From: Eledone cirrhosa
Taxonomy: Eukaryota
Direction of reading: 5' to 3'
Assembly: GCA_964016885.1 (NCBI GenBank)
Contig: OZ024741.1
Span: 371,256,001 to 371,320,000, forward strand
Length of the DNA stretch: 64,000 nucleotides
Shown here: in pieces, positions 1,527 to 62,755 of the stretch
How positions within the stretch are numbered: position 1 is the first letter of the stretch
Layout of the letters: each line of letters begins with the position of its first letter
The notes under the pieces: model-generated
Told to the model about the DNA's origin: nothing
Seen by the model: the letters and a program-made list of their open reading frames with translations, nothing else
The model's database searches: none
Position numbers and translations under genes: made by a program

Positions 1527-1579
1527 ATTTTATTATACATATTTCAGAGGTACAACAGTACGTCCTCATCAGATAAAAT
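1527..1579 (-). ncRNA. Minimal type-I hammerhead ribozyme motif
   Basis: Minus strand AUUUUAU-CUGAUGA-[stem II incl. GUAC/uguu/GUAC]-GAAA-UAUGUA-UA-AUAAAAU; perfect 7-bp stem I. Confidence 0.75.
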
Positions 1580-1822
1580 AAAATGATACATGACATACCC
1601 TGAGATATAATGATACATGACATACCCTGAGATGTTAAATGATTAAGATTAATCAAGGTAGTACCTTGATTAATCTTAATCTGAAATATGTATAATAAAA
1701 TTTAATTGATCACAGGAACATCTATCTTATTAATATTTGTATTTTAATATATATATATATATATATATAAATTAATAAAGTAATGAATAAACAAAGAAAC
1801 AGTTCCTTATATTAACAAAAAT

Positions 1823-1964
1823 TCATCATTTTACGATCGTTTCTAGGATATATATGTGTTAGAGTTGGTATGCATATTCTATAGATCTATGTACAATATT
1901 TATACAAACTATCAGAGGGAATATACATACCTACACATATATATGCTGTCTTCAGAAATAATGA
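1823..1964 (-). ncRNA. Type-I hammerhead ribozyme motif with long stem II
   Basis: Minus strand UCAUUAUUU-CUGAAGA-[AUAUAUAUGUG...CACAUAUAUAU]-GAAA-CGAUCG-UA-AAAUGAUGA; 9-bp stem I (one G-U), palindromic stem III, GUA site. Confidence 0.8.
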
Positions 1965-2612
1965 TATTTGTTTATTGAAAAAAACAAAGATTCAATACAA
2001 TAGGTCTGTTTGGGAACAGGTTTTGAATTGACCAATCAGGAGATAGTGAGGGTCAAGATAGTAATATAGTAGTAGAAGAACCTTAAATTATGGGTAGAGG
2101 AAGGTAGATTTCAGTTTTGGATGGAAAAGAATATGAATTAAGGATTATTTTAGGGAAGAAAATAGGTCGTATGCTGACCTCAGAAATAATTTTATTTGTT
2201 CATTGAATGAAACCAACAAAGATCTAATATATTCTGTCTGTTTGGTAAGAGGTTTAGAATTAACCAATAGAAAGTTAATAATTGGCCAAATGGTAAAATA
2301 GTAGTAATTGAAGCTTATTTTAGGGGTGAAAATATGTCAGGTCAGTAAAAGGTATACAAGCAGTTGCTGTTATAAAATAGTAATGCCAATGCAAATATCT
2401 AAGGAGACTAAAGTTTTACGATAAGAGTGTTAGTGAAAAAAATACATCTATGAAAAGAATATAAATTAATTTAATTGATGGGTATATTTATATTGATAAA
2501 ATTATACTAATACATATAGATATGACAAATAAGAGTTAGATGCAGTTGAAAAGTGCTGTTGAAGATGAGGGGAAATTAAAAGAATATAAAAATAATATAT
2601 ATATATATACAT

Positions 2613-4061
2613 ATCAGGGCTCTGTTCTCAGCCCCCTACTATTTATTATTGCCCTTCAGGCTATAACAGAGGAGTTCAAGACAGGCTGCCCATGGGAACT
2701 CCTATACGCAGACGACCTGACACTCATAGCGGAATCAATGGCCGAGCTAGAGAAGAAATTCCAAACATGGAAGCACGGCCTAGAGTCAAAAGGACTTAAA
2801 ATTAACCTGGCTAAGACCAAAGTTCTAGTTTGTAGGAAAGAAAACAAGGCGGCGGTCCCTTCTGGGAAATGGTCGTGCTCGGTGTGTAGGAAAGGCGTAG
2901 GTAGAAACTCCATTTTATGTCCTAAATGCAAAGTATGGGTGCATAAAAGATGTAGTGGGATCACAGGTAAGCTAACTAAGAACATAGATTTTACATGTGG
3001 CCGGTGTTCTGGTGCAATAAGTAGCAGCAAGTGCCCACAAAATACTAGCTCTTTCAATTGCGCAGAGGGTTCTATAGAAATAGTGGACAGCTTCCGTTAC
3101 CTGGGCGATAAAATCAGCAGTGGGGGAGGGTGCTCTGAAAGTACTGTAGCTAGAGTCAGAACTGGTTGGAAAAAGTTCAGAGAGCTTATACCACTATTAG
3201 CTGCTAAAGGGTTCTCCCTAAAAATGAAAGGCAGGTTGTACGATGCCTGCATACGAACAGCAATGCTGCATGGCAGTGAGACCTGGGCATTGTGTGCAGA
3301 GGATATACGCAGACTAGAGAGGAACGAAGCTTGCATGCTCCGCTGGATGTGTAACAGTAATATACGTGAACGGCAAAGCATAAACGAACTAAGGAAAAAA
3401 TTAGAGATAAGAGGGATCAGATGTTGTTTACTCGAGAGAAGGCTACGTTGGTATGGACACGTGATGCGCATGAAAGTCGATAGCTGTATAACAAAGTGCA
3501 GGGCAATAAAGATAGACGGTAGTCACGGAATAGGCAGACCTAGAAAAACCTGGGACGAGCTGATAAACTCCGACATCACACACTTACACCTCTCCAAGAC
3601 AATGTCACTGGACCGAGACCTTTGGCGGTACTCAGTAACAGAGAAGACCCGCCTTACCTAAATATATAGTAAAACCTACTCCAGCCAGTAGGCATCTCTA
3701 ACAAAATACACCCCGTCCCACCACCACCACCCCCACCCCATCCACACCACCCCGTTCTATGTAAAGTTATGTTGGTGCCGCGCCATCCAGGCCGAAACAA
3801 ATGAGATCGTGTAGGTGTCACGACAAAAAAAAACACACAGTCCACGCTGTAATGTGGCCGTGTAGGCAACACGGTAAAAACCTCCCAGACCCACACTGTA
3901 AATGTGGTTGGTGTTAGGAAGGGCATCCAACTGTAGAAAACCCGCCAGACAGTCTTATGCGAGCAAGACATTCACTCTTGCCTCAAGTGGGACTACCCCC
4001 GTCCAAACCCATGCAAGCGTGGAACACGGACGTTAAACGTTGATGATGATGATGATGATGA

Positions 4062-4065
<4 letters not shown>
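2613..4065 (+). mobile_element. 5'-truncated young RTE LINE (family 1)
   Basis: QGSVLSP, LYADD, PHD-like finger, GRPRKTW, 3' UTR and (GAT)n tail; (TA)n on both sides. Confidence 0.93.
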
Positions 4066-4114
<49 letters not shown>

Positions 4115-4646
4115 CATACACACACACATATACACACATATATATATATATATATACACACATATATATATATATACACGCATATATATATATACATACA
4201 TATATACATACACACACATACACACTTACATATACATATAATTATTGGGGGGGGGGGGGGAATTAAATTTATTAGTGAGAAATAATAAATATATATAGAT
4301 TTCAAGGAACATAGAGTCATAACCTGAAGTTAAAGCATTATATATGTTTACTTAATGGTATCAGTTTTAGGAAATGATAGTTGTAAGAAGGAAAGTAAAA
4401 TTATGTGGTTCATCAGTAGTAGAATATTAATTATAGGTTAACTAAATTAAAAACAATTTATATATTAATTTCTAAAGTCTATATTATCTTGACTCTGTTT
4501 TCCGTTTATTTTTCACCGAAAGTAGTTTTTGAATGCATCTTCTCTTTTCATGATATCCGGATTACATTGAGTTCTTCATACGGATTGGACACTACCGTAA
4601 ACTTTTGGTAGATTTATCTACATACATATATATATATATATATATA

Positions 4647-7600
4647 AAAAACGATGCTATAAGCTTTTCTGGGTGGGAAATGACAATGGGCTGGGTGGGG
4701 TAGGAATCATGTTAGCAGAAAAGTGGGCAGATAAGATAATAGACGTAAATAGAGTGAACGACAGAATAATTAAAATAAGACTTGTCCTCAATAAAACTAC
4801 GGTGACAGTAATATCTGCGTACGCACCCCAATCCGGACTGCCCGGCGCTATAAAAGACAGATTCTACGAGACACTGATGTTCGCTACCTCCCAAATAACC
4901 GACAGTGACTATATAGTTATTGCAGGCGACCTAAATGGTCACGTTGGACAACATTGTGACGGCTATGACGGAATCCATGGAGGCTACGGGTTCGGTACTA
5001 GAAATGAGGAAGGCTCCAGAATCCTGGAATTCTGCGACGCAAATAACTTAACTATCTGTAACACTAACTTCAAAAAACGAGACAATCACTTGATCACCTA
5101 TAGATCGGGGGAACACACAAGCCAGGTAGATTATATCCTTACCAGAAGACGTGACAGAGTGTCTGTTGTTAACACTAAATCCCTCCCCCATGAAGAATTC
5201 ACCTCCCAACATAGACTGATAATTAGCGACCTCATAGTCAGGACGAGACGTACTAGACAGCAGAAGAGGACTATCCTCAGGAGAAAAATATGGAAGCTAA
5301 AGGACCCCATAGCCAGAAATAAATTTCAAAGCATATTACTTGACGCTTTCGACAGTAAGGAAGAGCAATTAGAGTCGTATAATATAGAGGAACAGTGGGA
5401 ATTCCTGAGAGCAAACCTGCTGACAGTGGCAGACGAAGTCTGTGGCTGGAGCAGGCCTGTAGGTAGGAGGAGAGTAACATGGTGGTGGAACAGTAAGGTG
5501 GAGGAGTCAATTAAGGCCAAAAAGTAGGCTTGGAAAGTATGGCGGGATGGGGGAAGTAGAGAAGACTATCAAGTGGCCAGGAGGGAAGCTAGGAGACAAG
5601 TGTACTTCGCAAGAAGGGAAGCAGAGGAAAGAAAGTTCAAGCATGTTCTACAACGTGAGGACCAAAAACGTGAGGTGTTCAGGATTGCCAGGCAATGTGT
5701 CAAGGAAAACTGTGATATTGTCGGGGAGAAGTGTGTACTTAACGATGATGGCATACTTGCCATCACCGACGCTGATAAGAAAGTAGCTTGGAAGTGTCAC
5801 TACGAAAGGCTTCTAAATGAGGAGAACAAATGGGAGAAAGACAGTCTCCCCCACATCGACCCAATAGAGGGACCAGCAGTGTTAGTCCAGGGTAGTACAA
5901 TAAGCAAGGCAATCAAAGATATGAAGACGGGTAAGGCGGCTGGTCCTTCGGAAATAGTTGCTGAGATGCTGAAGGCATCTGGTTCGGTGGGACACACCAT
6001 GGTCACCCGGATAGTTAACCAAGTCGTACAGAATGGGGTTGTTCCGAAGGACTGGCGTAGCATCATCATCGTTAACTGCTATAAGGGAAAAGGAGATGCC
6101 CTAGATAGGAGTAACTATAGAGGCATTAAATTAATCGACCAGGTCATGAAGGTCACGGAAAAAGTAATAGCGCAACTAATCAGAGAGAGAATTGATCTAG
6201 ATGAAATGCATTTCGGGTTTGTGTCAGGCAAAAGTACCACAGACGCTCTTTTCATTGTACGACAACTACAGGAGAAGTACCTAGCTAAAAGTAAACCCCT
6301 ATACTTAGCTTTCGTCGACTTGGAGAAAGCCTTCGACAGAGTCCTCCGTTCCATTATCTGGTGGTCTCTTAGAAAACTAGGTGTTGACGAATGGCTTGTG
6401 AGAGCTATACAAGCCATGTATAAAGAAACAGTCAGTAAGGTTAGAATTAACAACGAATATAGTGAAGAGTTTAGCGTAAAAGTTGGTGTCCATCAGGGCT
6501 CTGTTCTTAGCCCCCTACTATTTATTATTGCCCTTCAGGCTATAACAGAGGAGTTCAAGACCGGCTGCCCATGGGAACTCCTATACGCAGATGATCTAAC
6601 GCTCATAGCTGAATCAATGACCGAACTAGAGAAGAAGTTCCAAACATGGAAGCACGGCCTAGAATCAAAAGGCCTTAAAATTAACCTGGCTAAGACTAAA
6701 GTTCTAGTTTGTAGGAAAGAAAATAAGGCGGCGGTCCCATCTGGGAAATGGCCATGCTCAGTGTGTAGGAAAGGCGTAGGTAGAAACTCCATTTTATGTC
6801 CCAAATGCAAAGTATGGGTGCATAAAAGCTGTAGTGGGATCACAGGTAAGCTAACTAAGAACATAGATTTTACATGTGGCTGGTGCTCTGGTGCAATAAG
6901 TAGCAGCAAGTGCCCACAAAATACTAGCTCCTTCAACTGCGCAGAGGGTTCTATAGAAATAGTGGACAGCTTCTGTTACCTGGGTGACAAAATCAGCAGT
7001 GGGGGAGGGTGCTCTGAAAGTACAGTAGCTAGAGTCAGAACTGGATGGAAAAAGTTCAGAGAGCTTATACCACTATTAGCCGCTAGAGGGTTCTCCCTAA
7101 AAATGAAAGGCAGGTTATACGATGCCTGCATACGAACAGCAATGCTGCATGGCAGTGAGACCTGGGCATTGTGTGCAGAGGATATACGCAGACTAGAGAG
7201 GAACGAAGCTTGCATGCTCCGCTGGATGTGCAATAGTAATATACGTGAACGGCAAAGCATAAACGAACTAAGGAAAAAATTAGAAATAAGAGGGATCAGA
7301 TGTTGTTTACTCGAGAGAAGGCTACGTTGGTACGGTCACGTGATGCGCATGAAAGACGACAGCTGTATAACAAAGTGCAGGGCAATAAAGATAGACGGTA
7401 GCCACGGAGTAGGCAGACCCAGAAAAACATGGGACGAGCTGATAAATTCCGACCTCACACGCTTACACCTCTCCAAGACAATGTCACTGGACCGAGACCT
7501 TTGGCGGTACTCAGTAATAGAGAAGACTCGCCTTACCTAAATACAAAGTAAAAACCTACTACAGTCAGTAGGCATCTCTATCAAAACACACCCCCGTCCC

Positions 7601-8042: not shown

Positions 8043-8097
<55 letters not shown>

Positions 8098-24165: not shown

Positions 24166-25265
24166 ATACACACATATATGTGTATATATATATATTCATT
24201 TAAAATCACCAGGATGATGATTTTATATGAATAAAACAGTTCTAGTCCTGTAGAAGTTATTTTTATATTAAATAATTGTTTCTACTTAAGGCACAGGGCC
24301 AGCAATTACCCAGTGCATTACTGGTACTTTATTTTATCAACCCCGTAAGGATGAAAGGCAAAGTCAACCTCGGCAGGATTTGAACTCAGATCGTAAAGGG
24401 ACGTAACTATGCTGGAAAGCATGGCATCCGACCCTCTAACGATACTGCCAATCCACCACCTTTTTATATTAAATAATGATGCTTTTTATATTAAATAATG
24501 ATGCTTACACACGTCTAATGTATTGAGTGCTTTTTTAACTGTGGTTATCCCCTACCCCCTCCAATATTACTTGGGATCTATATCATTATCATCGTTTAAC
24601 GTCTATCTTCCATGCTAGCATGGGTTAGACGGGAATTGTCCAAGTTGAGGCAAGATTGATCGGGTGACCGTGTCTCGCCGATATAGGACTGTTTATATGT
24701 ACAAAATACTAGAAGTTTCTCAATGGCTATCCTGTTATATATCATTTCTACTTCTTGTTTACTTGATCCTCTCAACTGATGTTCATGGAACTTTTTTATT
24801 GAGAAACATAATTGATATGTATTTTATATGTAATAGAATTATTTTAAACACACTTGACGCGTTTGTGTATATGTGTGTGTGTGTGTGTATGTAGATTGTA
24901 CACACAGGTGTAGTGAATGTTAGGCGCTGCTTTCTGTAGTTTGTCATCACCCCTTCCTTCCTCAGTCATCTCTAGTGTGTAACATCATCACCCCTTCCTT
25001 CCTCAAATTTATATATAGATTGATTAAACTTAAAATTAGTATATATAAATATAAATATATATATATAACAAAGGAAATGTAGTAAAGAACCAGATGGACC
25101 ATAACGCACCAGAGTACTCAATACTTAGAGTAGTAGAGTGGGAAATAGAAAAAATTTGACCCCGACGGCAGAGCTCAAGCCGTTTTGACGGCTACTAGTC
25201 CAGAAATAGCCGTCGAAACGGCTTGAGCTCTGCCGTCGGGGTCATACTTTTTAATATATATATAT

Positions 25266-25612
25266 ATATTGTTATACTTTGTGAGGGCCATGTTGCCAAT
25301 AAGAAACACACGCACCAGTTGCTTTCACTTCAATTTATTATAAATTAAATTTATAAATTTAGGAATTTATAAATTTCCGGTTGGTTGGTTCCACAACCAG
25401 ATGATTGTTCATATATTGTCAAAGTTCTTTCGTCACACATTATGTGACCTCTTCAGTGACTGGGGATTCTTTTCTTTGTTTTTGTGCCTCTCCTTTGTTC
25501 TGTCCTACGCCATCTTGTTTTTCAAGATGGCGTAGGACAGAGCAAAGTATAACAATATCGGTTTCAACACACGTTTTCAGATAAAGAATCTTGCTAAACA
25601 AATTCAGAAACG

Positions 25613-25614
<2 letters not shown>
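25266..25614. mobile_element. Penelope-like terminal fragment with inverted segment (homologues ~43970-44245, 59675-60000)
   Basis: Shared caaagtat..caatatc.gtttcaacacacgttttcagataa end; contains a hammerhead; flanked by (TA)n. Confidence 0.65.
25418..25460 (-). ncRNA. Minimal hammerhead ribozyme motif
   Basis: Minus strand GUCA-CUGAAGA-G-GUCACA-uaaug-UGUGAC-GAAA-GAAC-UU-UGAC. Confidence 0.75.
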
Positions 25615-25657
<43 letters not shown>

Positions 25658-27379: not shown

Positions 27380-30300
27380 TGTTATTGATATTTATGGTAT
27401 TGATGTTGGTGGTGTTGATGGTGATGATAGTTTTGGTGTTGATGTTGATGGTATTAGTGGTGTTGATGGTGATGATGTTGATAGTGTTGTTGGTGTTGGT
27501 GTTGGTAGTGTTGATGATAGTAGTGTTTATGGTGTTGATGTTGTTGGTGATGGTGATAGTTTTGGTGTTGATGGTGTTGGTGATGATCTTGATGTTGATG
27601 TTGGTGTTGTTGGTGTTAGTGTTGATATTGGTAGTGTTGGTAGTGTTGGTAGTGTTGGTGTTGATGGTGGTGTTGTTAGTGTTGATATTGGTAGTGTTGG
27701 TAGTGTTGGTGTTGATGGTGGTGTTGTTGGTGTTAGTGTTGATATTGGTAGTGTTGGTAGTGTTGGTGTTGATGGTGGTGTTGTTAGTGTTGATATTGGT
27801 AGTGTTGATAGTGTTGGTGTTGATGGTGGTGTTGTTGGTGTTAGTGTTGATATTGGTAGTGTTGGTAGTGTTGGTAGTGTTGGTGGTGTTGATGGTGTTA
27901 GTATTGATATTGGTAGTGTTGGTAGTGTTGGTAGTGTTAGTGGTGTTGATGGTGTTGTTGGTGTTAGTGTTGATATTGGTATTGTTGATAGTGTTGGTAG
28001 TGTTGGTGTTGATGGTGGTGTTGTTGGTGTTAGTGTTGATATTGGTATTGTTGATAGTGTTGGTAGTGTTAGTGGTGTTGATGGTGTTAGTATTGATATT
28101 GGTAGTATTGATAGTGTTGGTAGTGTTAGTGGTGTTGATGGTGGTGTTGTTGGTGTTAGTGTTGATATTGGTATTGTTGATAGTGTTGGTAGTGTTAGTG
28201 GTGTTGATGGTGGTGTTGTTGGTGTTAGTGTTGATATTGGTATTGTTGATAGTGTTGGTAGTGTTAGTGGTGTTGATGGTGGTGTTGTTGGTGTTAGTGT
28301 TGATATTGGTATTGTTGATAGTGTTGGTAGTGTTAGTGGTGTTGATGGTGGTGTTGTTGGTGTTAGTGTTGATATTGGTATTGTTGATAGTGTTGGTAGT
28401 GTTAGTGGTGTTGATGGTGGTGTTGTTGGTGTTAGTGTTGATATTGGTATTGTTGATAGTGTTGGTAGTGTTGGTGTTGATGGTGGTGTTGTTGGTGTTA
28501 GTGTTGATATTGGTATTGTTGATAGTGTTGGTAGTGTTGGTGTTGATGGTGGTGTTGTTGGTGTTAGTGTTGATATTGGTAGTGTTGGTGTTGATGGTGG
28601 TGTTGTTGGTGTTAGTGTTGATATTGGTAGTGTTGGTAGTGTTGGTGTTGATGGTGGTGTTGTTGGTGTTAGTGTTGATATTGGTAGTGTTGGTGTTGAT
28701 GGTGGTGTTGTTGGTGTTAGTGTTGATATTGGTAGTGTTGGTAGTGTTGGTAGTGTTGGTGTTGATGGTGGTGTTGTTGGTGTTAGTGTTGATATTGGTA
28801 GTGTTGGTAGTGTTGGTAGTGTTGGTGTTGATGGTGGTGTTGTTGGTGTTAGTGTTGATATTGGTAGTGTTGGTAGTGTTGGTAGTGTTGGTGGTGTTGA
28901 TGGTGTTAGTATTGATATTGGTAGTGTTGGTAGTGTTGGTAGTGTTAGTGGTGTTGATGGTGTTGTTGGTGTTAGTGTTGATATTGGTATTGTTGATAGT
29001 GTTGGTAGTGTTGGTGTTGATGGTGGTGTTGTTGGTGTTAGTGTTGATATTGGTATTGTTGATAGTGTTGGTAGTGTTAGTGGTGTTGATGGTGTTAGTA
29101 TTGATATTGGTAGTGTTGATAGTGTTGGTAGTGTTAGTGGTGTTGATGGTGGTGTTGTTGGTGTTAGTGTTGATATTGGTATTGTTGATAGTGTTGGTAG
29201 TGTTAGTGGTGTTGATGGTGGTGTTGTTGGTGTTAGTGTTGATATTGGTATTGTTGATAGTGTTGGTAGTGTTAGTGGTGTTGATGGTGGTGTTGTTGGT
29301 GTTAGTGTTGATATTGGTATTGTTGATAGTGTTGGTAGTGTTGGTGTTGATGGTGGTGTTGTTGGTGTTAGTGTTGATATTGGTATTGTTGATAGTGTTG
29401 GTAGTGTTGGTGTTGATGGTGGTGTTGTTGGTGTTAGTGTTGATATTGGTAGTGTTGGTGTTGATGGTGGTGTTGTTGGTGTTAGTGTTGATATTGGTAG
29501 TGTTGGTAGTGTTGGTGTTGATGGTGGTGTTGTTGGTGTTAGTGTTGATATTGGTAGTGTTGGTGTTGATGGTGGTGTTGTTGGTGTTAGTGTTGATATT
29601 GGTAGTGTTGGTAGTGTTGGTAGTGTTGGTGTTGATGGTGGTGTTGTTGGTGTTAGTGTTGATATTGGTAGTGTTGGTAGTGTTGGTAGTGTTGGTGTTG
29701 ATGGTGGTGTTGTTGGTGTTAGTGTTGATATTGGTAGTGTTGGTAGTGTTGGTAGTGTTGGTGGTGTTGATGGTGTTAGTATTGATATTGGTAGTGTTGG
29801 TAGTGTTGGTAGTGTTAGTGGTGTTGATGGTGTTGTTGGTGTTAGTGTTGATATTGGTATTGTTGATAGTGTTGGTAGTGTTGGTGTTGATGGTGGTGTT
29901 GTTGGTGTTAGTGTTGATATTGGTATTGTTGATAGTGTTGGTAGTGTTAGTGGTGTTGATGGTGTTAGTATTGATATTGGTAGTGTTGATAGTGTTGGTA
30001 GTGTTAGTGGTGTTGATGGTGGTGTTGTTGGTGTTAGTGTTGATATTGGTATTGTTGATAGTGTTGGTAGTGTTAGTGGTGTTGATGGTGGTGTTGTTGG
30101 TGTTAGTGTTGATATTGGTATTGTTGATAGTGTTGGTAGTGTTAGTGGTGTTGATGGTGGTGTTGTTGGTGTTAGTGTTGATATTGGTATTGTTGATAGT
30201 GTTGGTAGTGTTAGTGGTGTTGATGGTGGTGTTGTTGGTGTTAGTGTTGATATTGGTATTGTTGATAGTGTTGGTAGTGTTGGTGTTGATGGTGGTGTTG

Positions 30301-30845
30301 TTGGTGTTAGTGTTGATATTGGTATTGTTGATAGTGTTGGTAGTGTTGGTGTTGATGGTGGTGTTGTTGGTGTTAGTGTTGATATTGGTATTGTTGATAG
30401 TGTTGGTAGTGTTGGTGTTGATGGTGGTGTTGTTGGTGTTAGTGTTGATATTGGTAGTGTTGGTGTTGATGGTGGTGTTGTTGGTGTTAGTGTTGATATT
30501 GGTAGTGTTGGTAGTGTTGGTAGTGTTGGTGTTGATGGTGGTGTTGTTGGTGTTAGTGTTGATATTGGTAGTGTTGGTGTTGATGGTGGTGTTGTTGGTG
30601 TTAGTGTTGATATTGGTAGTGTTGGTAGTGTTGGTAGTGTTGGTGTTGATGGTGGTGTTGTTGGTGTTAGTGTTTATATTGGTAGTGTTGGTAGTGTTGG
30701 TAGTGTTGGTGTTGATGGTGGTGTTGTTGGTGTTAGTGTTGATATTGGTAGTGTTGGTAGTTTTGGTGGTGTTGTTGGTGTTGGTGATAGTTTTGGTGTT
30801 GATGTTAGTGGTGTTGTTGATAGTGTTGGTGTTGATGGTAGTGTT
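27380..30845. repeat. 3.5-kb triplet-mosaic satellite (GTG/TTG/GTA/ATG/ATA/TTA)
   Basis: Almost C-free plus strand; subunits up to 69 bp and higher-order periods of 1008 and 870 bp. Confidence 0.95.
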
Positions 30846-30864
30846 GCTGCTGCTACAGGAATAA

Positions 30865-38659: not shown

Positions 38660-38724
38660 TATTTTGTCTGATGAAGGCATACCATAATGTAACTTGGTAT
38701 CCTTGAAATATATATAATGAAATA
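38660..38724 (+). ncRNA. Minimal hammerhead ribozyme motif (sense strand of MTFMT intron)
   Basis: UAUUUUGU-CUGAUGA-AGG(c)AUACCA...UGGUAUCCU-u-GAAA-UAUAUA-UA-AUGAAAUA; stem I kept with two G-U pairs. Confidence 0.78.
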
Positions 38725-41106: not shown

Positions 41107-44014
41107 ATATATAATAAAGGAGTGAAGAATAACACACATTGGCTATACAGTAGGGTTTAAATACTTGGAATAAACCCTACTGTATAGCCAATCCGTGTTA
41201 TTCTTCACTCCTTTATTATTAATACTCCAGGAACTGCTTACCTAGGAACTGTCTGGAATCGGCCAGCCAACACCACAACTAAGTAAACATCTTGCTGAGT
41301 CAAACAACCCCAAATGTTAGAACTATCCTCAATACAGAGTACTCATAACTTCTACTTGGATTGCTTCAAACGATACCTCGTTAACTTAAATATATATATA
41401 TATTAACCAGGTTCATTTAACTTTTGTTGGAAGGGAGAAAAATACAAGAGACAAGTAATTTTTATTTTTGTACTCTTACTTTTCTTCTCGTGGCCCATTG
41501 CTGTGAGGCTAAGGAAACTAGATGACCTGATGACCCTTACTTTTTTGGCTCTCCATAAGTAAACAAACTCGTATAATGTATTATTGGCAACAATAGCATT
41601 TTATCTTCAATCCAAATCAGTATTTTTGTATATAGGAAATGTTTGTGGCTATTGTTAGCTCAAACAATTGCTAGTGAGCACAGCTTAAAATATTCACAGT
41701 GAGATGTATGTATGTTAATTATACATAAACGTATTGTATATGTTTCCATATACGATTCTATTCTGGATCTGGCCATGTTAGTACTATTACTAATATATTT
41801 GTATATATATATATGCATATATACTGTAATTTTATGAGCTCACTTTTCGTAGATCGTATATTCTTCACTCTAGTGGTTCTCTACCCTTTGTAACTGAAAA
41901 CATACCCCTTTTTGTGTTTTCTTCTCTATATACTGTATTATATATATATGCATATATATATATATATTAATTAAAGGTTAATTAGTCACTAATACCCAAA
42001 CATCTCAATGAAAGAACTCTCTCAGAGAAGCAATATCATATATTAAAATTAAATGAGAAAAAAACTCTCCCGGAGTATAAACAAGCCAGACGGAAAATAT
42101 TTTTCCTCTAACTTGTCTTATATATAGATCTCCCTACCATGGTTTCGTATGGGAAAAAAACCATCATTGGAATGGAATTGCCAATAATTCAAGAACTCCT
42201 ATAGTCTTCAGGCTTGTTTAAACTCCTGTAGTGTTTTCTCTCATATAATTTCATACAGCATGCTTCTCTTAGGCTTTTGCATCTCTACCATTATTCAACA
42301 CATGTCATCATTGTTTAAAACAGACAGTAAATATGCTTTGCTGAAAAGCTCTAATAAGATTAAACATGTCTGTTGCTTTCACTAAGTTAGCATAAACACA
42401 AAGTTTACTCTTATTAGATTGTCTAAAAAATGTTCCAAAAATCTGGATCAACTTAGACTACAGGAGTTCTCTCCTTTGCTTTGTTCTCACCAAACAGTTT
42501 CAATCTTGATATTGTAAGAGTAGTTTTGGTGGATTGATGTTTTTTCCAATTCGTCCATGATTTATATTGTTTTAACCTCCTCCTTATTCTTTTTCCACTT
42601 ACTCCACTTACTGGGAGGGTCATGGGAACAGAGTCCTCAAACACACCTTCTTGCTGGTCCTGTCATAAGCAACTATTTCCAACTATTCCATTAGATCCCC
42701 AAGCGAGACCAGCCGAGCTCATAGATGTTATCCAACCATCTTGCTTGGGGTATCTTTTCTACTTAGCTATTTGATGTTCCCTGCATAAAATAAGTTATCC
42801 CTAAATTACACACAAAGGTAAGGAATTGGCAGAGTCATTAAAACATTGGATGGAATGCTTTGTGGTATTTATTCTGACACTGTGCATTCTGAGTGCAAAT
42901 CTTGCCATGGTCAAATTTACCTTTCATCCTTTTAAGGTAGATAAAGATAATACCAGTCTAGTAATGGCTTCAGTCATTTCTATATATCTCTTTCTCATTT
43001 CCTCTCTATCGCTTTCACTCTCTCCTTCTCTGGAAGAAGACAACTGTGTTCAGACCTGGAGAGGGGAGGGACTCCACCAGGTGTAAAATGCCCATGACAT
43101 GCCATATGTCACTTTGACAGCCCTGCGTCTCTATCACGAGTTACAGGTCCATACGTACATACTAATTACACATAAAGTATGTTTGAACTAAATGCACCCA
43201 GAATGTAGAATAGTTGATACATTATCAAAAATCTCTTCAACTTTACACCCAATAATAAACTAGCACTAATAATATATAAAACACACATTAGAATTAAAAT
43301 ATCTCTTCATTACAAACTGCAAGCTTGCAAATTACTGAATATATTTGAGATGACTAATGTAATTTCAATCAATAGAACAGCCTGCTCAAGAAACTAATGT
43401 GCAAATGGCTGAGCATTCCACAGATATGTGTGCCTTTAATGTAGTTCTCAGGAAGATTCAGGTTGACTCTTTCAATTATAACTATGTTGACAGGAGCAAT
43501 GTTAAATAAAGTGTCTTGCTTAATGTGCTGCAGTGAATTGAACTCACAACCTTACAATCATGATCCAAACAGCAGGAGTACATAGTCAGGGTTATAGAGT
43601 TCTCATCTAAGTGATCCTGTTCCACCATACCATAAAGAGGTTAGCTATGTCACCAACAATGTTGATGCCAAAAGCTGCCTCCTCCTCTTAGGCATATGTT
43701 TTGCCATTGATTTTAAACGTATGTTCCTTAAGGGTTAGTCTTTTACTGGTCTCCACTGCATATGTAATCATTTTCTTTACTTGGTTGTGCTTTTCGGGGG
43801 TCTGTATGGCACTTGTCCACCTGCTCTATCATTCTACGTGAGTTTTCTTCACCGTTGTGGTAATGGTAGGTGGTCTGCCTCTTCCTGGCCTTGTAGGACA
43901 GAGGCTGCTAATGTCATGTGTATCTAAGTATTCCTTATCCTGCATAAGTCTCAGTTGGAGTTCTAACACATAGGTGTAGGAAAGAACAAAAGAGAGACAC
44001 AAAATAACAACAAA

Positions 44015-44065
44015 GATAGTCACTGAAGAGGTCACAGAATATGTGACGAAAGAGCTTTGACAATC
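44015..44065 (+). ncRNA. Minimal hammerhead ribozyme motif (sense strand of MTFMT intron)
   Basis: GAUaGUCA-CUGAAGA-G-GUCACA-gaaua-UGUGAC-GAAA-GAGC-UU-UGACaAUC. Confidence 0.78.
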
Positions 44066-44871
44066 AACAACTAAATAACCATCGAGTTATTAAACTAACC
44101 AACTAAGAGTCTATAATAAATAGAGGTGAAAACCAACAGGTGCTTGTGTTTTTATTGGCAGCATGACCCTGCCAAAGTATAAAAATATCTGTTTCAACAC
44201 ACATTTTCAGATAAAAAATCTTGCAAACAAATACAAAAACGAAGTATATCTACATATGTGTATGTATGTGTGTGTGTGTGTGTATAGATCATTTGTTATT
44301 AACAGTAACTGTTTACTTCGAAGTTTCGCCAAAGCTACTAGCTTTTCAAGAATAGTTTGTTTTGAAAAGCCATTAGCTTTGGTGAAACTGTCACTATATA
44401 TTTTAAACATATTTACTGTATAAACAACATATCAGTCCAACCCATAAAAGAAGCATTTGTTTACATGCATATATATGTATGCATGTAAATATACGTATAC
44501 ATATATGCATGTTTATATACATATATATACATGCATATGTATATATACATATATATACATGCATATGTATATATACGTATATATACATGCATATGTATCA
44601 TCATCATCATCTTTTTATGTCTGCTTTTCCCTGCTTGCAAGGGTGGGACGGGAACTGATTCTGGCTTGATTTCTACAGCTGGATGCCCTTCCTAACACCA
44701 ACCTCATTTACAGTGAGTGCTGGGTGCTTTTTTGCCGTGGCACCTCCACGACCACTTTGCAGTAGAATGATAGGGACCCAGTCCTATCATCTCATTTCTA
44801 CAGCTGAGTAAACTGGAGCAATGTGAAATAAAGTGTCTTGCGCAAGGAAACAACACATCACCCAGTCTGAG

Positions 44872-45578: not shown

Positions 45579-46346
45579 ATACGTATATATACATATGCAT
45601 GTATATATATGTATATATACATATGCATGTATATATATGTATATATACATATGCATGTATATATACGTATATATACATATGCATGTATATATACATATAT
45701 ATACATATGCATGTATATATATGTATATATACATGCATATGTATATATACGTATATATACATGCATATGTATCATCATCATTTTCTTTTTACGTCCGCTT
45801 TTCCCAGCTTGCAAGGGTGGGACGGGAACTGATTCTGGCTTGATTTCTACAGCTGGATGCCCTTCCTAACACCAACCTCATTTACAGTGAGTGCTGGGTG
45901 CTTTTTTGCCGTGGCACCTCCACGACCACTTTGCAGTAGAATGATAGGGACTCCAGATCTCATTTCTACAGCTGAGTAAACTGGAGCAATGTGAAATAAA
46001 GTGTCTTGCTCAAGGAAATAACACATCACCTGGTCTGAGAATTGAACCTGGTGATGTGTTGTTTCCTTGAGCAAGACACTTTATTTCACATTGCTCCAGT
46101 ATATATACATATATATACGTATGCATGTATATATACGTATATATACATATGCATGTATTTATATGTATATATACATATGCATGTATATATACGTATATAT
46201 ACATATGCATGTATATATACGTATATATGCATATGCACGTATATATACATATATATGCATGTATGTTACACAGGACACTGTTGATACTCCTTGGTCACCA
46301 ATTGTTTAAATTACTGCTATAAATATTTACGTTCCTTCTAATTCCC

Positions 46347-46938
46347 CACTTTCATCCCTTATTCAAGCCACCCTATTGGTCATATCACTTTCATCCCTTA
46401 TTCAAGCCACCCTATTGGTCATATCACTTTCATCCCTTATTCAAGCCACCCTATTGGTCATATCACTTTCATCCCTTATTCAAGCCACCCTATTGGTCAT
46501 ATCACTTTCATCCCTTATTCAAGCCACCCTATTGGTCATATCACTTTCATCCCTTATTCAAGCCACCCTATTGGTCATATCACTTTCATCCCTTATTCAA
46601 GCCACCCTATTGGTCATATCACTTTCATCCCTTATTCAAGCCACCCTATTGGTCATATCACTTTCATCCCTTATTCAAGCCACCCTATTGGTCATATCAC
46701 TTTCATCCCTTATTCAAGCCACCCTATTGGTCATATCACTTTCATCCCTTATTCAAGCCACCCTATTGGTCATATCACTTTCATCCCTTATTCAAGCCAC
46801 CCTATTGGTCATATCACTTTCATCCCTTATTCAAGCCACCCTATTGGTCATATCACTTTCATCCCTTATTCAAGCCACCCTATTGGTCATATCACTTTCA
46901 TCCCTTATCCAAGCCACCCTATTGGTCATATCACTTTC
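46347..46938. repeat. 39-bp minisatellite, ~15.2 copies
   Basis: Unit cactttcatcccttattcaagccaccctattggtcatat, head-to-tail with no spacers; one variant seen in the last unit. Confidence 0.97.
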
Positions 46939-48917: not shown

Positions 48918-49852
48918 TCTATATATATAAAACTGTGGTTGTCTGTCTGTCTATCGATTTTTGGCACACATCTCCTCTTAGAATCTCTCACGGAATTGCA
49001 CCGAAATTGCTATACTTGTACATTGAGCCCTAGCGAAGACATCGGAAAAAAAAAAATTTCAAATTGACCCACCCTATGTGACGAAATCGAATATAATGTA
49101 TCGATTTTTGAGCGTAAGTTATCAGTTATTTCCCTTTGTTCTGTTTACATTGAGCGTCTTACGTAAAAAATTACGCTGGCTTTAACAGTTGTCGAGCCAG
49201 CAAAATATTGACCTGCAAAATTCATCAGTTCGAACACTAAGCTTCCGTTTTGCTTCATTTCCATTTAAAAGCATTTTAAAACAATATTTTTACTTGAAAA
49301 CAAGTCTATTTAAAGACTACGTAAAACAAGCAAATATTTCGTCGTTAGGCGTGCAGACAGACAGTCGTGCAGAGAGGTGATATAGGCGTGCAGACAGACA
49401 GTCGTGCAGAGAGGTGATATAGGCGTGCAGACAGACAGTCGTGCAGAGAGGTGATATAGGCGTGCAGACAGACAGTCGTGCAGAGAGGTGATATAGGCGT
49501 GCAGACAGACAGTCGTGCAGAGAGGTGATATAGGCGTGCAGACAGACATAACTGATAATTTGGTTACGCTAATGTTTTTCTCTGCGTTGCAGTGTTTACA
49601 TTTTCGATCTTTGTTAATAAATAACCAGTGCAGTTTTTATCCCCAGCATCCTCTTTTGTTATAACATTCGGGTTATCGTTATATTTTCTTAACTTCATAA
49701 GGCATATTGTTGGTTGAGGGAATATTAATCAAAAACACCACATGCAAGTCTGCACAGTAGACACTACAGTTTTTAAGCCAAAAAGAAACTTAACATTGTA
49801 ACTTTAACACAGCTACTGAGCGACCCCGAGCAACGCCGGGCTTTACTGCTAG
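48918..49852 (+). mobile_element. Non-autonomous Helitron
   Basis: A|TCTATATATATAAAA 5' end; 3' CCCG-agcaacgc-CGGG hairpin then CTAG|T; inserted in A/T with no duplication. Confidence 0.88.
49346..49548. repeat. 37-bp minisatellite, ~5.5 copies, inside the Helitron
   Basis: Unit taggcgtgcagacagacagtcgtgcagagaggtgata. Confidence 0.95.
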
Positions 49853-52742: not shown

Positions 52743-53058
52743 ATGATGGGTTGCCCCCTCGTTATCGAGTATGGCCATTGCACGATATACCATTATTAAT
52801 AATTATTAATTAATTCTATCGTGCAATGCCTATGCGTGAAGATATATTTTAAAGTGAGGAAAGACTGTGCACTGAGCCAATCCCACTCTCTGAGCGACAG
52901 TAGCTATAACCCGAAAAGAAGAAAAGATCAACATCATCGGTAACTACTGAGCCGCAGGGTTTATATCGGAGTTATCCCAGTTTCCTGAGTTGCCTTCTTC
53001 TAGAAGAATACCCTGACAAATGCTAGGGGTCCTTCACTCCCAGTGGTTTAACCGCGTC
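52743..53058 (-). mobile_element. Dispersed non-coding retro-like element, partial copy
   Basis: Close reverse complement of 60311-60630. Confidence 0.75.
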
Positions 53059-53184
53059 ATCGGGTGTCCAGCCCGACTATTTCTATGTCCCCGCGCATAT
53101 ACATACATATGTACATGTGTATATACATATTTACACACTTTTTGACATATATACATACATGGATGCATATATACATACATGCAT

Positions 53185-54278
53185 ATGGTCTAAAATCCAT
53201 ATTAACATCATATGAGACCCGGATAGTAACACTAAAGCAACATCTTCAACAGAGGAAAAAGGTTGGCAACCATCTTGCCCAGGTTTATGAGCATGACGAA
53301 AAAAATATCATTAGAATAGCGACTGATCTGGAGGAGAGATATGGAATAAAGCCTGATATAAATCTCTCACCCAGAAAAATGGGAAGATCCTATTCAATGT
53401 TCAAACACGATGAAAAAATTGACCAATTTACAGAAAAAGTTGTGCATGGATACTTGAGACGTAAAACACAGACCATAGAGGGGATAAACCACTTAAAAAG
53501 CCTGGCATGGAGTTCCGACAAGTTTATGACATCACACCTTGAGGGATATCTCTATGCAATACAGGAACAAGAACTCCCTAGCAAATATCTGCTGCACAAA
53601 AGAGGAGGGCCATCAGCTGACAATAAATGTATGCTATGTAAAACAAAGATCGAAGATGTAAGCCACATTGTTGCCAGCTGCGAAAGAATGTCATCTCGCT
53701 ACTACCTCCCCATGAGACACGATGGGATAGCTAGAACCATCTGGAACGCACTTCGGAAAACAAAATTAACAACAAACGAAGAAGAATATATTGAGACAGA
53801 TGGCACTAAGGAATACTGGTGGAACCTGAAAATAAAAACTGCCACCAAATTAAAGCACAACCCGCCTGATATTGTTGTTTGGGACCACACATTGAAAACG
53901 TGTTCTGTTGTGGAGATCAGCTGCCCACTTGATGTAAACGTTGTCAGAAAAATACAGGAGAAGGAGGACATCTATGGATCATTGATGAGGAGTTTACAAA
54001 TCCAGTATCCAAGATACACCTTTAGCTTCATACCCATCATTATTGGTGCTACGGGTTATATACCAACCCGCTTGGACCAAAGTATGACTGAACTTGGATT
54101 TGCGGACAAAAAGCGCAGCTCCCTAATTCATAGTCTACAAATGGCTGCGATAGCTGGCACCTTCAAAATTTGCAAAACATTCTTGCGATTCAAGGGATGA
54201 CAATTTCTTTTCTTTTACAACCTTGCCACCAGGAAGGTGGCCGGTCAAAAATATAAGCGAAATTAAGAGAAAGAGAGA
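53185..54278 (+). mobile_element. 5'-truncated R4/Dong-like LINE (CCHC knuckle + restriction-like endonuclease)
   Basis: AIQEQ, CMLC...H...C, RHD, PDIVVWD, VEISCP.D...K motifs in an open frame to 54200; 3' end runs into (CATA)n. Confidence 0.85.
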
Positions 54279-57570: not shown

Positions 57571-57617
57571 AAACCCTTATCATTCATACCCTGAGGCTGG
57601 TGAATTAGTAGAGTCGT

Positions 57618-57677
57618 TAACCCTAGCCCCTACCCTCACCCTCACCCTAACCTTAACCTTGACCCTAACCCTAACCC
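57618..57677. repeat. Degenerate (CCCTAA)n telomere-like tract
   Basis: taaccctagcccctaccctcaccctcaccctaaccttaaccttgaccctaaccctaaccc; second short run ~57791-57805. Confidence 0.7.
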
Positions 57678-58027
57678 GAATATAAAAAATTAAGCTTTCA
57701 GAATCATCAATCGAAAATAATAATAATAAATGGGAAGATGTAGAACTTAGAGTTAGAAATTATGTAATCCGTAGTGACTAAAACTAAGACTAACCCTAAC
57801 CCTAAGTCTAAGAGATATTAACTCATTGATTGTTAAATCATTACGTTCTATAATTTAAATTAATCTTCTATTTTTCGTTACGGTATTTTCCCGTTTTGTT
57901 TTATAGCAATATATGTATAATATACTCTATGTACTCAGTATTTATCACAGTTTTCAATCACATTGTATTTGTGTATTTCGGATATCCTGTTGATGAAAGA
58001 GTTACTGTTAAATGAACACCTAAAAAA

Positions 58028-58430
58028 TGGCTACTCCTCAAGAAAAGGCACAGTGTGTGTCATGGTTTATTGAAAACAAAATCGGATATGCGGACTCAGC
58101 GAAACTACAGAACTAAGTATGGAAGAGATCTACCGTCACGTCCGTCAATTCGGGCATGGCACAAGAAATTTATCATTGGTCCATTATTCTTCAAATTTTT
58201 ACCTTGACTTTTTGACTGAATATGTGAGACCACAACTAGATGACCTTCAACCAACCATCATTTTTCAACAAGATAGTGCACTACCACATTTGGGACTGCA
58301 TGTTCATGGGTTCCTAAATCAAACATTTCCAGACCGGTGGATTGGAAGGGATGGCTCAATTCCCTGGCCACCTCGTTCACCAGATATCACTCCCCATGGA
58401 CTTCTTTCTATGGGGCTATGTGAAATATAG
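58028..58430 (+). pseudogene. Internally deleted Tc1/mariner-superfamily transposase
   Basis: MATPQEKAQCVSWFIE...RNYRTKYGR..PSRPSIRAWHKKF (HTH) joined to FQQD...WIGR...WPPRSPDITP.DFFLWGYVK; frameshifts. Confidence 0.85.
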
Positions 58431-59089
58431 ATGGATGTCACCATACGAATTAACTAGCTTTGATTGTAGACTCAAGAATATGAGATACAAGATACAGTGT
58501 ACTTGTATCTAAAACAAACAAACGATGTGATGCACGGCTATTCTAATCAGTCTTATGCGAAGGGGCGTCGAATAGACCGGAAAATACAGTATATTGTTAT
58601 TAATAATTTAGCGTTAAAAAGTGTGAAAAAATATATTACGCCACGAAAAAAGCCCTAAAATAATCGCGGAAGATATTTACAATTCTGCAAATATGCGGTG
58701 GTTTCCAAATATTAGTTAGATTCTAAGGGAAATTCCGCGAATAAATGGGATTGCGAATGCCGGGGGTACACTGTATATACTTTTTTCACACACACACACA
58801 CACGATTATTCTATTTCAATTAACCAGTCAGATTCACTCGGTTGTGCACATAGACGCACACATACATTTAAACACCCACTAAGCCAGACATCTACACACA
58901 CAACCACTCTCTAACCATAAAAAGCCTCACTTATACGAACAGAATTTACAATTCGATAAACAATATATCCCTTATTTGGAGAAACCACACTGCATGATGA
59001 TACAGTAAGTTAACCGCCAAGGCCTTCGGCAATCAGTCTGGAACTAGCTGTTGAAACGGCAAGAGCTCAGTTATCGGGGTTCCGATTTT

Positions 59090-59145
<56 letters not shown>

Positions 59146-59775
59146 AACGAATAGGACCCCGACGGCTGAGCTCAAGCCGTTTCGACGGCTAATTCTGGAC
59201 TCTCGGTCCAGAATTAGCCGTCGAAGCGGCTTTAGCTCAGCCGTCGGGGTCCTATTCGTTCCTATTACCCACTCTACTACCCTAAGTATTGAGTACTTTG
59301 GTGCGTCATGGTCCACCTGGTTCCTTACCACATTTCCTCCGTTATATATATATATATATATGGGAAAATGTTCAAGACCCCGACGGCAGAGCTCAAGCTG
59401 TTTCGACGGCTATTTCTGTCCAGAAATAGCCGTCGAAACGGCTTGAGCTCTTCCGTCGGGATCTTGAACATTTTCCTATTACCCACTCTACTACCCAAAG
59501 TATTGAGTACTCTGTACGTTATGGTCCACCTGGTTCCTTACCACACTTCCTTCGTTATATATATATATATAGATATATATATATTCCCAGGTGTAAAACT
59601 AATAATAATAACTTTTGTACTGCCTCTTCGTTTTTCTGTTTTTTGTTCTCTGTTTACTTTTTAAAATATATATATATTGTTATACTTTGGGAGGGTCATG
59701 CTGCCAATAAAAACACACGCACAAAAACAAGATGGTGTAGGACAGAACAAAGGAGAGACATGAAATAAAAACCTA

Positions 59776-59816
59776 GTCACTGAGGAGGTCACAATGTGTG
59801 ACGAAAGAGCTTGGAC
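59776..59816 (+). ncRNA. Minimal hammerhead ribozyme motif
   Basis: GUCA-CUGAGGA-G-GUCACA-aug-UGUGAC-GAAA-GAGC-UU-GGAC; one stem-I mismatch next to the core. Confidence 0.65.
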
Positions 59817-60092
59817 AATATATAAACAACGTTCCGGTTATCAAACCAACCAACCAACCGGAATTTTATAATATATTGAAGTGAAAACGAACAGGTGCGT
59901 GTGTTTTTATTGGAAATATGACCCTCCCAAAGTATAGCAATATCTGTTTCAACACACGTTTTCAGATAAGAAATCTTGCAAAACAAATTCAAAAACGAAA
60001 AAAAAATATATATATATATATATATGTGTATGTATGTATGTATGTATGTATGTATGTATGTATGTATGTATGTATGTATGTATGTATGTATG

Positions 60093-61019: not shown

Positions 61020-61087
<68 letters not shown>

Positions 61088-61381
61088 ATGATATTAATAA
61101 ATGGAAACTATATTTATAAACGGAAAAAATGAAACGAAATTTCATTTTCCACTCTTAGTACGGCTGTTACTTAAATATAAGTATGTACACGTACATAATA
61201 TATGTATACAGACGTACAGTAGTATGTATATATATATACATACATGCACACATATATATATGTACGTATGGATTCACCGAACATTTATTATAATGCTCGG
61301 TGTGTTTGTAAACAAACATCCCGTATTAAGCCGTAGTGTCCAGCAACCATTGTTGCTCGTTTGTTCAACACTGACAAAGGA

Positions 61382-61424
61382 ACGCTGTACTAGTTTCAAG
61401 CTTATTAGCTATCGTCAGCAACGT
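61382..61424 (-). ncRNA. Hammerhead ribozyme motif (CUGACGA type)
   Basis: Exact reverse complement of 62004-62046. Confidence 0.85.
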
Positions 61425-61587
61425 ATACCTTCCTGCCAGATTGTTGAACGTATATACTTACCTTACGCCTCAAACTCATTTGCATATTCATCAAAATAAT
61501 TTGAAATATTTGTTTTTTCCTCTCTTCCTCTTTGTCCCTTTTTCTCTCTTTCCTTTCACTATCCAGGTGAAACTTGAACAAACTTTG

Positions 61588-61648
61588 TATTTTATCTGAT
61601 GAGTGCGTACCAAAGTTTTGGTACCCTTGAAATATATATAAAAGAATA
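61588..61648 (+). ncRNA. Hammerhead ribozyme motif (CUGAUGA type)
   Basis: UAUUUUAU-CUGAUGA-..GUACCAA..UUGGUAC..-GAAA-UAUAUA-UA-AAAGAAUA; one stem-I mismatch. Confidence 0.7.
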
Positions 61649-61872
61649 AATATAGTTTTATAAATATATAAGTATGTACACGTACATACATATATGTATA
61701 CAGACGTACAGTAATATGTATATATATATACATACATGCACACATATATACATGTACGTATGGATTCACCGAACATTTATTATAATGCTCGGTGTGTTTG
61801 TAAACAAACATCCCGTATTAAGCCGTAGTGTCCAGCAACCATCGTTGCTCGTTTGTTCAACACTGACAAAGG

Positions 61873-61915
61873 ACGCTGTACTAGTTTCAAGCTTATTAGC
61901 TATCGTCAGCAACGT
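61873..61915 (-). ncRNA. Hammerhead ribozyme motif (CUGACGA type)
   Basis: Exact reverse complement of 62004-62046. Confidence 0.85.
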
Positions 61916-62003
61916 ATACCTTCCTGCCAGATTGTTGAACGTATATCAGCCGTTAATATGCATAAGGTAAGTATATACGTTCAACAATCTGGCAGGAAGG
62001 TAT

Positions 62004-62046
62004 ACGTTGCTGACGATAGCTAATAAGCTTGAAACTAGTACAGCGT
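62004..62046 (+). ncRNA. Hammerhead ribozyme motif (CUGACGA type)
   Basis: ACGUUG-CUGACGA-uAGCU-aaua-AGCUu-GAAA-CUAG-UA-CAGCGU; complete core, palindromic stem III, predicted cleavage after 62040. Confidence 0.87.
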
Positions 62047-62424
62047 TCCTTTGTCAGTGTTGAACAAACGAGCAACGATGGTTGCTGGGCACTACGGCTT
62101 AATACGGGATGTTTGTTTACAAACACACCGAGCATTATAATAAATGTTCGGTGAATCCATACGTACATATATATATGTGTGCATGTATGTATATATATAT
62201 ACATACTACTGTACGTCTGTATACATATATGTATGTACGTGCACATACTTATATTTAAGTAACAGCCGTACTAAGATTGGGAAATGAAATTTCGTTTCAT
62301 TTTTTTCCGTTTATCGTTTTCGGTGCACCCGGCCGATTAACCCACCCGATATGCAAATTGGACTACTCAGCCGTTAATATGCATAAGGTAAGTATATACG
62401 TTCAACAATCTGGCAGGAAGGTAT

Positions 62425-62467
62425 ACGTTGCTGACGATAGCTAATAAGCTTGAAACTAGTACAGCGT
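62425..62467 (+). ncRNA. Hammerhead ribozyme motif (CUGACGA type)
   Basis: Identical to 62004-62046, 421 bp downstream; predicted cleavage after 62461. Confidence 0.87.
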
Positions 62468-62694
62468 TCCTTTGTCAGTGTTGAACAAACGAGCAACGAT
62501 GGTTGCTGGACACTACGGCTTAATACGGGATGTTTGTTTACAAACACACCGAGCATTATAATAAATGTTCGGTGAATCCATACGTACAATTATATATGTG
62601 TGCATGTATGTATATATATATATACATACTACTGTACGTCTGTATACATATATGTATGTACGTGTACATACTTATATATTTATAAAACTATATT

Positions 62695-62755
62695 TATTCT
62701 ATTATATATATTTCAAGGGTACCAAAACTTTGGTACGCACTCATCAGATAAAATA
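62695..62755 (-). ncRNA. Hammerhead ribozyme motif (CUGAUGA type)
   Basis: Reverse copy of 61588-61648 with a fully paired 8-bp stem I (UAUUUUAU/AUAGAAUA). Confidence 0.75.

Follow-up and report, generated by a model that had tools for sequence, protein, structure and literature searches.

In this work, we analysed 64,000 nt of the Eledone cirrhosa genome (assembly GCA_964016885.1, contig OZ024741.1, positions 371,256,001 to 371,320,000 of the forward strand; this whole stretch is hereafter the window) and the hammerhead ribozyme motifs that it carries. Twelve motifs of type I were retained, distributed among four short non-coding families, A to D. We consider it quite probable that families A, B and D are the likely terminal repeats (pLTRs) of 5'-truncated Penelope-like elements (PLEs), that family C is of retrozyme type, and that all of them were moved in trans by PLEs. 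The phenomenon is a known one, which the initial annotation of this sequence caught correctly but overstated in count and density. The present analysis adds four unlisted hammerhead families to a class that is counted in thousands per animal genome.

Thirteen intact cores had been reported, and the CUGANGA, GAAA and UH boxes were indeed found, in type-I order, at all 13 positions (seven on the minus strand, i.e. 1527, 1823, 25418, 42131, 61382, 61873 and 62695, and six on the plus strand). The window was scanned with a strict descriptor (helix I of at least four consecutive pairs, at least 4 of 6 pairs in helix II, the closing pair of helix III and a loop II shorter than 45 nt), using 200 local dinucleotide shuffles and the reversed or complemented window as controls. 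Nine matches were retrieved, all among the 13 sites; none was found in any shuffle, nor in the reversed or complemented sequence. Raising the loop II limit to 160 nt gained the site at 1823 (10 matches, shuffle mean 0.04), so that within the window 9 to 10 matches stood against 0 to 0.04, i.e. far above chance. A relaxed scan (one core mismatch tolerated, non-consecutive pairs, loop II below 45 nt) gave 11 matches, i.e. the nine strict ones plus 59776 and 61588, each with a single helix-I mismatch, and returned no site of the window beyond those previously noted; in 12 shuffles, it gave on average 1.33 matches at the lowest threshold and 0.42 at the score of the weakest match. Since the bare CUGANGA box was barely enriched (35 occurrences against 26.7 +/- 4.6 in shuffles), the signal is carried by the helices.

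Three boxes and three helices with helix I open, which define a type-I hammerhead, were present at 12 of the 13 sites. The remaining one, a singleton (E; 42131..42215, minus strand), keeps the core boxes and a palindromic helix III and is broken elsewhere, with helix I reduced to 1 pair and helix II mismatched at its first pair and at a second one. Twelve cores are plausible: nine strict, one with a long loop II and two with one helix-I mismatch, the last three being imperfect. Instead of at least five families, we found four well-formed ones plus the broken singleton. These represent about eight independent insertions (nine when counting 42131), because six cores belong to one locus with a two-event history, described below.

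Family A comprises A1 (1527..1579, minus strand), A2 (38660..38724, plus), A3 (61588-61648, plus) and A4 (62695-62755, minus), and is characterised by an AT-rich helix I of 7-8 bp, a constant C.C mismatch in helix II and a palindromic helix III. A1 has 7 bp in helix I and 7 of 8 pairs in helix II, its predicted cut lying after 1534. A2 stands within a long outer hairpin (predicted cut after 38716) and is followed on its 3' side by a 40-bp tail and then a (TA)n tract, and A3 shows one private helix-I mismatch. Among the window copies of this family, 93 % of cells were paired and two pairs were altered on both sides. Family D (1823..1964, minus; predicted cut after 1832) follows the helix II plan of A around a 75-nt loop, with 13 of 15 pairs, a C.A at the base and a C.C at position 4 as in A; it has a 9-bp helix I and a palindromic helix III. 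A decayed partial tandem of the 5' part of its unit was found at 2170..2327 (minus; 75 % identity, core mutated, GAAA half gone).

Family B comprises B1 (25418..25460, minus), B2 (44015..44065, plus) and B3 (59776..59816, plus), with a helix I of 4 bp, a bulged G followed by a G10.1-C11.1 pair and a helix II of 6-7 bp (7 bp in B1). Its helix III consists of 2 pairs and a 2-nt purine loop, with U at the cleavage site, so that the tiny palindromic stem III previously described stands as a perfect palindrome for A, C, D and 42131 and not for B. Behind the B1 unit, of about 260 bp (25266-25522), lies a second copy in inverted orientation and with an internal deletion (25523-25615). The B2 unit spans 43973-44285. 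The B3 unit (59723-60000), whose first helix-I pair is mismatched, ends in (TA)n, and 49 bp of it recur, inverted, just before it (59674-59722). Finally, family C comprises C1 (61382..61424, minus), C2 (61873..61915, minus), C3 (62004-62046, plus) and C4 (62425-62467, plus); it shows a bulged helix I of 6 bp extended by an outer helix, a helix II of 4 bp over a U.U and a palindromic helix III.

Helix III was unformed in all seven monomers folded, and a self-duplex was predicted in six of the seven, at -4.2 to -12.0 kcal/mol for A1, A4, C3, D and B2 (that of B2 including two purine mismatches). According to these models, the behaviour of helix III fits action as dimers. The earlier assignment to type-I hammerheads of the PLE kind, with palindromic helices III suited to dimers, is supported, and at least two of the families are high-copy, as sequencing reads revealed.

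Among the 23 sequencing runs listed, 20, from 16 studies and none of them recorded as RNA, contain all or part of the locus where families A and C lie side by side. Four of them were mapped onto positions 61265-61665, including contigs (X1) and raw restriction-site-associated DNA (RAD) reads (X21; 37,765 of 12.5 million reads mapped), which come from different studies. Relative to the low-copy spacer between the two motifs (61466-61576), the depth reached about 4100x for C and 1200x for A in X1, and about 2000x and 340x, respectively, in X21. Families A and C are separate high-copy families in this species. For C, roughly 10^4-10^5 copies can be proposed as an order of magnitude, summed depth not being equal to copy number. 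Runs labelled as two other organisms also contain pieces of C, one of them with 3 differences in 154 bases.

Variants were considered for 40 of 118 rows. The two mismatches of A3 were paired in X1, through 61642 A>T (more than 99 % of depth) and 61604 T>A (90 %), and the changes at 61603, 61643 and 61644 retain pairs. Seven of the eight indels listed in the A motif cluster around loop II (61613-61623). For C, four changes were listed, which affect N7, loop II and, within one helix-I pair, each of the two bases; no change at the invariant core bases of A and C occurs in these 40 rows. These variants of both families behave as for a kept structure.

The six cores located at 61.1-62.9 kb were further compared by self-BLAST of the window. 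The C copies are 97-98 % identical to one another, and A3 together with its flank (61460..61670, plus) reproduces A4 and the sequence beside it (62675-62883) in inverted orientation, at 98 % identity. The left end of the locus (61085..61120, minus) matches the family A tail as found behind A2, and the body of the same A copy resumes at 62675..62765 (minus), with 12 identical bases at 61109-61120 and 62675-62686. In the simplest reading of this arrangement, one family A copy would have been split by one composite insertion with a 12-bp target duplication. The insert would consist of 1.7 C units (a full unit of 421 nt at 61947..62367, plus strand, carrying C3, and a second, partial and 98 % identical unit at 62368..62677, plus strand, carrying C4), an inverted C piece (61666-61946, with C2), the inverted copy of the target flank (with A3) and, as its last segment, a further C piece (61121-61465, with C1). 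The six cores would therefore reflect two events only. The locus may thus preserve the footprint of a retrozyme-type insertion, and is relevant to the question as to what enzymes mobilise animal retrozymes.

Two other explanations of this locus were weighed. As A3 is opposite in strand to C1 and C2 inside a 491-nt repeat, the locus might be read as a viroid-like unit of 491-nt period, whose two strands would each carry hammerheads and which would replicate by a symmetric rolling circle. We reject this candidate, which appears barely credible: in X1 and X21 the spacer falls far below both motifs in depth, the loose ends run into sequences of their own families, and a single insertion copying its own target flank explains the opposite strands. 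Moreover, opposite-strand pairs 100-700 bp apart have already been described for PLE remnants (PMC4209133). It is also very improbable that the motifs are due to chance or are by-products of AT-rich palindromes, or that the palindrome at 61-63 kb is an assembly artefact. Helices I and III of family A are rich in A and T and lie close to microsatellites, the arms of the inverted repeat at the locus are 98 % identical, and no listed contig spans 61265-61665; on the other hand, chance is refuted by the absence of matches in 200 composition-matched shuffles, helix-restoring variants occur in two data sets of different studies, and the copies at the locus are about 2 % apart, with a coherent target duplication and split A copy.

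Family C was examined as a candidate retrozyme. C3 and C4 are 421 nt apart and fold at -8.6 kcal/mol each, the longest stop-free frame is 105 codons, and the predicted cuts (after 62040 and 62461) delimit a monomer of 421 nt (62041-62461). A non-LTR (long terminal repeat) retrozyme is defined by a complete type-I hammerhead in at least two consecutive non-coding tandem units with a minimum free energy of the motif below -5 kcal/mol (bioRxiv 10.64898/2026.07.22.740005), and C presents these features. The C circle was predicted to fold at -131 kcal/mol (z -6.9 against 100 shuffles), with 68 % of its bases paired against 62 %; this is driven by two local hairpin regions, and the last 210 nt of the unit alone show no excess self-pairing. 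From its sequence, C thus fits the non-LTR retrozyme definition as a non-coding tandem unit, closer to a retrozyme than to the minimal pLTR motif, and is a probable cephalopod retrozyme; the initial annotation had missed this 421-nt tandem unit and its canonical helix sizes. As in metazoan non-LTR retrozymes (PMC7229834; bioRxiv 10.64898/2026.07.22.740005), the tandem is non-coding with one type-I hammerhead per unit, has a GC content of 38 %, a circle that may be self-paired, a target duplication longer than 4 bp and thousands of copies or more, and the U.U at the base of helix II recalls axolotl HHR_Amex2. Unlike them, it comprises 1.7 units inserted with an inversion and a target-flank copy; its length slightly exceeds the 170-400 nt of PMC7229834 and lies inside the 51-972 nt of bioRxiv 10.64898/2026.07.22.740005. 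Family C, young and of high copy number, can be put forward as a candidate for circular RNAs in cephalopods that standard Rfam annotation overlooks.

The link of each family to PLEs is made by anatomy only, because no PLE open reading frame (ORF) was found in the window; truncated PLE copies normally lack an ORF. With the minimal hammerheads (min-HHRs) of PLEs (PMC4209133), our motifs share the core boxes, the type-I topology, a tiny or palindromic helix III, a predominance of single dispersed copies, several families per genome and the occasional opposite-strand pairs that were mentioned above. Family B additionally shares their bulged base and G10.1-C11.1 pair. The motifs differ in that no flanking PLE ORF was seen in the window, in the long AT-rich helix I (7-9 bp), helix II C.C mismatch and missing G10.1-C11.1 pair of A and D, and in the imperfect palindrome of loop III and U at H17 of family B. 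The insertions resemble those of PLEs (PMC8557442; Anolis Poseidon, PMC11167929), where tandems are partial, truncated copies stand inverted next to others, tails are short (30-40 bp in PMC8557442) and targets are microsatellites or AT-rich; such features occur at A1, B1, B3, D and the 61-63 kb locus. A (TA)5+ tract was present within 250 nt of 7 of 8 loci, against 31 % of random places (P 0.002). Unlike in those PLEs, no reverse transcriptase or GIY-YIG coding part was found in the window, so that the clade (Penelope/Poseidon, Neptune, Nematis or Hydra) is not assignable. Naiads, which have no canonical hammerheads according to PMC8557442, are not the source here. In Octopus vulgaris, Penelope elements are abundant and recently active (PMC13282606).

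The mechanism that we propose would proceed as follows. A, B and D being terminal repeats of 5'-truncated PLEs and C a non-autonomous 421-nt retrozyme-type derivative, all four families would depend for their mobility on the reverse transcriptase and endonuclease of Penelope elements located at other places in the genome. Where one transcript spans two consecutive units, their palindromic helices III would form a duplex with each other, and the dimer would cut after its UH site and release unit-length RNA, which for C would be a 421-nt monomer able to circularise. An AT-rich nick would then be the site at which the unit RNA is copied into cDNA, with jumps between templates giving rise to the tandem, inverted and flank-copying structure seen at 61.1-62.9 kb. 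Copies dispersed singly would for the most part be inactive relics, and no host function is implied.

Several observations weigh against this reading. Neither a Penelope reverse transcriptase nor a GIY-YIG Pfam domain was detected among 150 of the 159 ORFs of the window that have at least 62 aa and are not from long interspersed nuclear elements (LINEs), nor in seven longer ORFs of the window; likewise, three read-through frames of 62761-64000 gave no Pfam match and phmmer of one of these frames no match. PLE min-HHRs are expected to combine a short helix I and a long helix II with a G10.1-C11.1 pair and a base bulged out between 9 and 10.1; only family B displays these traits, from which A, C and D depart, A and C lacking G10.1-C11.1. 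B1 yielded no stable predicted self-duplex of helix III, and the U carried by family B at the cleavage site is the slowest allowed base. Covariation within the window was weak for A (27 of 500 shuffles reach the observed value, and A3 and A4 are not independent) and absent for B, whose helices are invariant in three copies; it is in the reads that variants of A and C restore or keep helices. Even there, the two helix-I changes of C may lie on different molecules. No Rfam hammerhead model appeared among the 150 matches, of 250, that were listed for the window, nor, at E values up to 10, at 61270-61700 and 43900-44250; the matches listed were microsatellite hairpins below gathering scores, and 43900-44250 gave nothing. 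Lastly, many motifs of this kind showed weak or no cleavage in published tests (PMC4209133, PMC11167929, bioRxiv 10.64898/2026.07.22.740005): one of nine predicted Xenopus retrozyme dimers was cleaved in vitro (bioRxiv 10.64898/2026.07.22.740005), and in an Anolis PLE cleavage required protein and was dispensable for insertion (PMC11167929).

Given the missing PLE ORF, the four families could instead be independent elements, of retrozyme type or resembling short interspersed nuclear elements (SINEs), that share only the hammerhead and are moved by RTE-type LINEs and not by Penelope. RTE-like LINE copies with RVT_1 and APE domains are abundant in the window, and the 12-bp duplication is equally compatible with a LINE-type insertion. 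We regard this as improbable, as self-BLAST revealed no 3' end common to hammerhead units and LINE copies, partial tandems with adjacent inverted copies are PLE traits, and family B agrees with the pLTR min-HHR consensus. That the host has retained the hammerheads for cutting or circularising transcripts of its own at this locus has nothing specific in its favour and seems most unlikely: no host gene was recognised in the window, and the copies at 59776, 61588 and 42131 bear private helix-breaking changes.

The initial annotation had further inferred a very large unannotated hammerhead complement from the density of motifs. When depth was divided by the letters read, we obtained about 10-13 copies per Mb for C and 1-4 per Mb for A, against 62 per Mb each in the window, an estimate that covers these two families, with RAD sampling biased and copies less than 80 % alike missed. 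As these values are far below 62 per Mb, the window overshoots as a basis for extrapolation, and its count is inflated by one local duplication event; the density inference does not hold. A large complement as such is the published norm for invertebrates and amphibians. Schistosoma has been reported to carry about 2,000 min-HHRs, coelacanth 4,000 and Xenopus 9,000, mostly single and in several families per genome (PMC4209133). A coral holds more than 6,000 motifs, grouped into 16 families, a mussel about 5,000 and axolotl as many as 126,247 (4.5 per Mb), according to work that also describes circular RNAs (PMC7229834); homology between retrozymes and pLTRs is described in bioRxiv 10.64898/2026.07.22.740005. 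In two cephalopod repeat papers, Penelope is abundant and the word 'ribozyme' is absent from the accessible main text. No paper on hammerheads in octopus or cephalopods was found by title or abstract start, and cephalopods are unmentioned in the accessible sections of the retrozyme papers (PMC7229834; bioRxiv 10.64898/2026.07.22.740005); in both cases supplements, and in the former subscription papers, may hold counts. A bolder proposal appears doubtful to us, namely that the hammerhead complement of this genome would be among the densest known (tens per Mb, at least 100,000 motifs), led by an active 421-nt retrozyme occurring as an abundant circular RNA, with the 61-63 kb locus as an insertion footprint of the Penelope machinery and fold-backs at loop II marking self-priming of cDNA.

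Fold-back hairpins were noted at several places. A GC-rich family (25149-25252, 59141-59265 and 59363-59476, in units 25040-25269 and 59124-59583) lies in (TA)n and adjoins family B at both loci, in opposite relative orientation. One of its arms resembles a hammerhead from which the 5' third is missing (helix II, GAAA, a helix III of 4-5 bp and GUC remain), and the inverted copy stands in place of the CUGANGA side; the structure could derive from a hammerhead that folded back at loop II, or simply consist of nested hairpins. Two further hairpins (1238-1380 and 44322-44389) show GAAA, a short helix III and UA at the foot of one arm, without CUGANGA, the helix III of 44322-44389 (minus strand) being a perfect palindrome. 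Around A1 (1478-1750), a perfect inverted repeat of 71 nt (1680-1750) reproduces the 3' half of the motif; it lies behind a hairpin of 20 bp (1641-1681) and a duplication of 27 nt. The idea that fold-backs are cut-off hammerheads was not retained: 4 of 13 passed a test for the 3' half, against 8.7 % of random places, three of them belonging to one family, and with 2 of 11 independent hairpins passing the excess is not significant (P 0.25). Since fold-backs with 50-bp arms also occur without hammerhead boxes (41111-41219 and 45980-46100, one from a SINE-like repeat), fold-backs are not hammerhead-specific here. A metagenome scan for relatives of the GC-rich family with a 16-base piece returned 120 loci whose best matches, of about 20 bases (one of 42 at 81 %), were attributed to chance.

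Regarding other contents, the window has 38 % GC and is dense in microsatellites, SINE-like repeats and LINE copies. A very AT-rich part (62884-64000, 27 % GC) looks by eye like decayed coding sequence, and a decayed PLE ORF was suspected at 62.9-64 kb, which the Pfam and phmmer searches above left unsupported. A young, near-full RTE-like LINE with one stop was found at 4601-7540; it encodes APE and reverse transcriptase, with a PHD finger inserted. Truncated copies occur at 2540, 18471, 22688, 25585 and 40078, and 3' ends enter (TGA)n(TA)n; by identity, the best animal-named match of the LINE protein was an Octopus bimaculoides reverse transcriptase (65 % over 73 % of the query), in keeping with an octopod host. 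The 3' part of a non-LTR element of restriction-endonuclease type with a zf-RVT match, which from its motifs we take to be R4/Dong-like, occupies 53052-54200; a search with its ORF returned no informatively named match. A decayed Tc1/mariner-like transposase piece with a DUF4817 helix-turn-helix match (58016-58500) is preceded by ten TAACCC-type repeats (57618-57677). A 3.4-kb minisatellite of GT-rich, 9-mer-based units (27404-30846), with long plus-strand stretches lacking C, is open in four frames (1000+ codons, the minus strand being rich in Thr/Asn or Thr/Pro) and is probably non-coding. Finally, two near-perfect minisatellites were identified, at 46347-46938 (39 nt x 15.2, 99 %) and 49346-49548 (37 nt x 5.5, 100 %).

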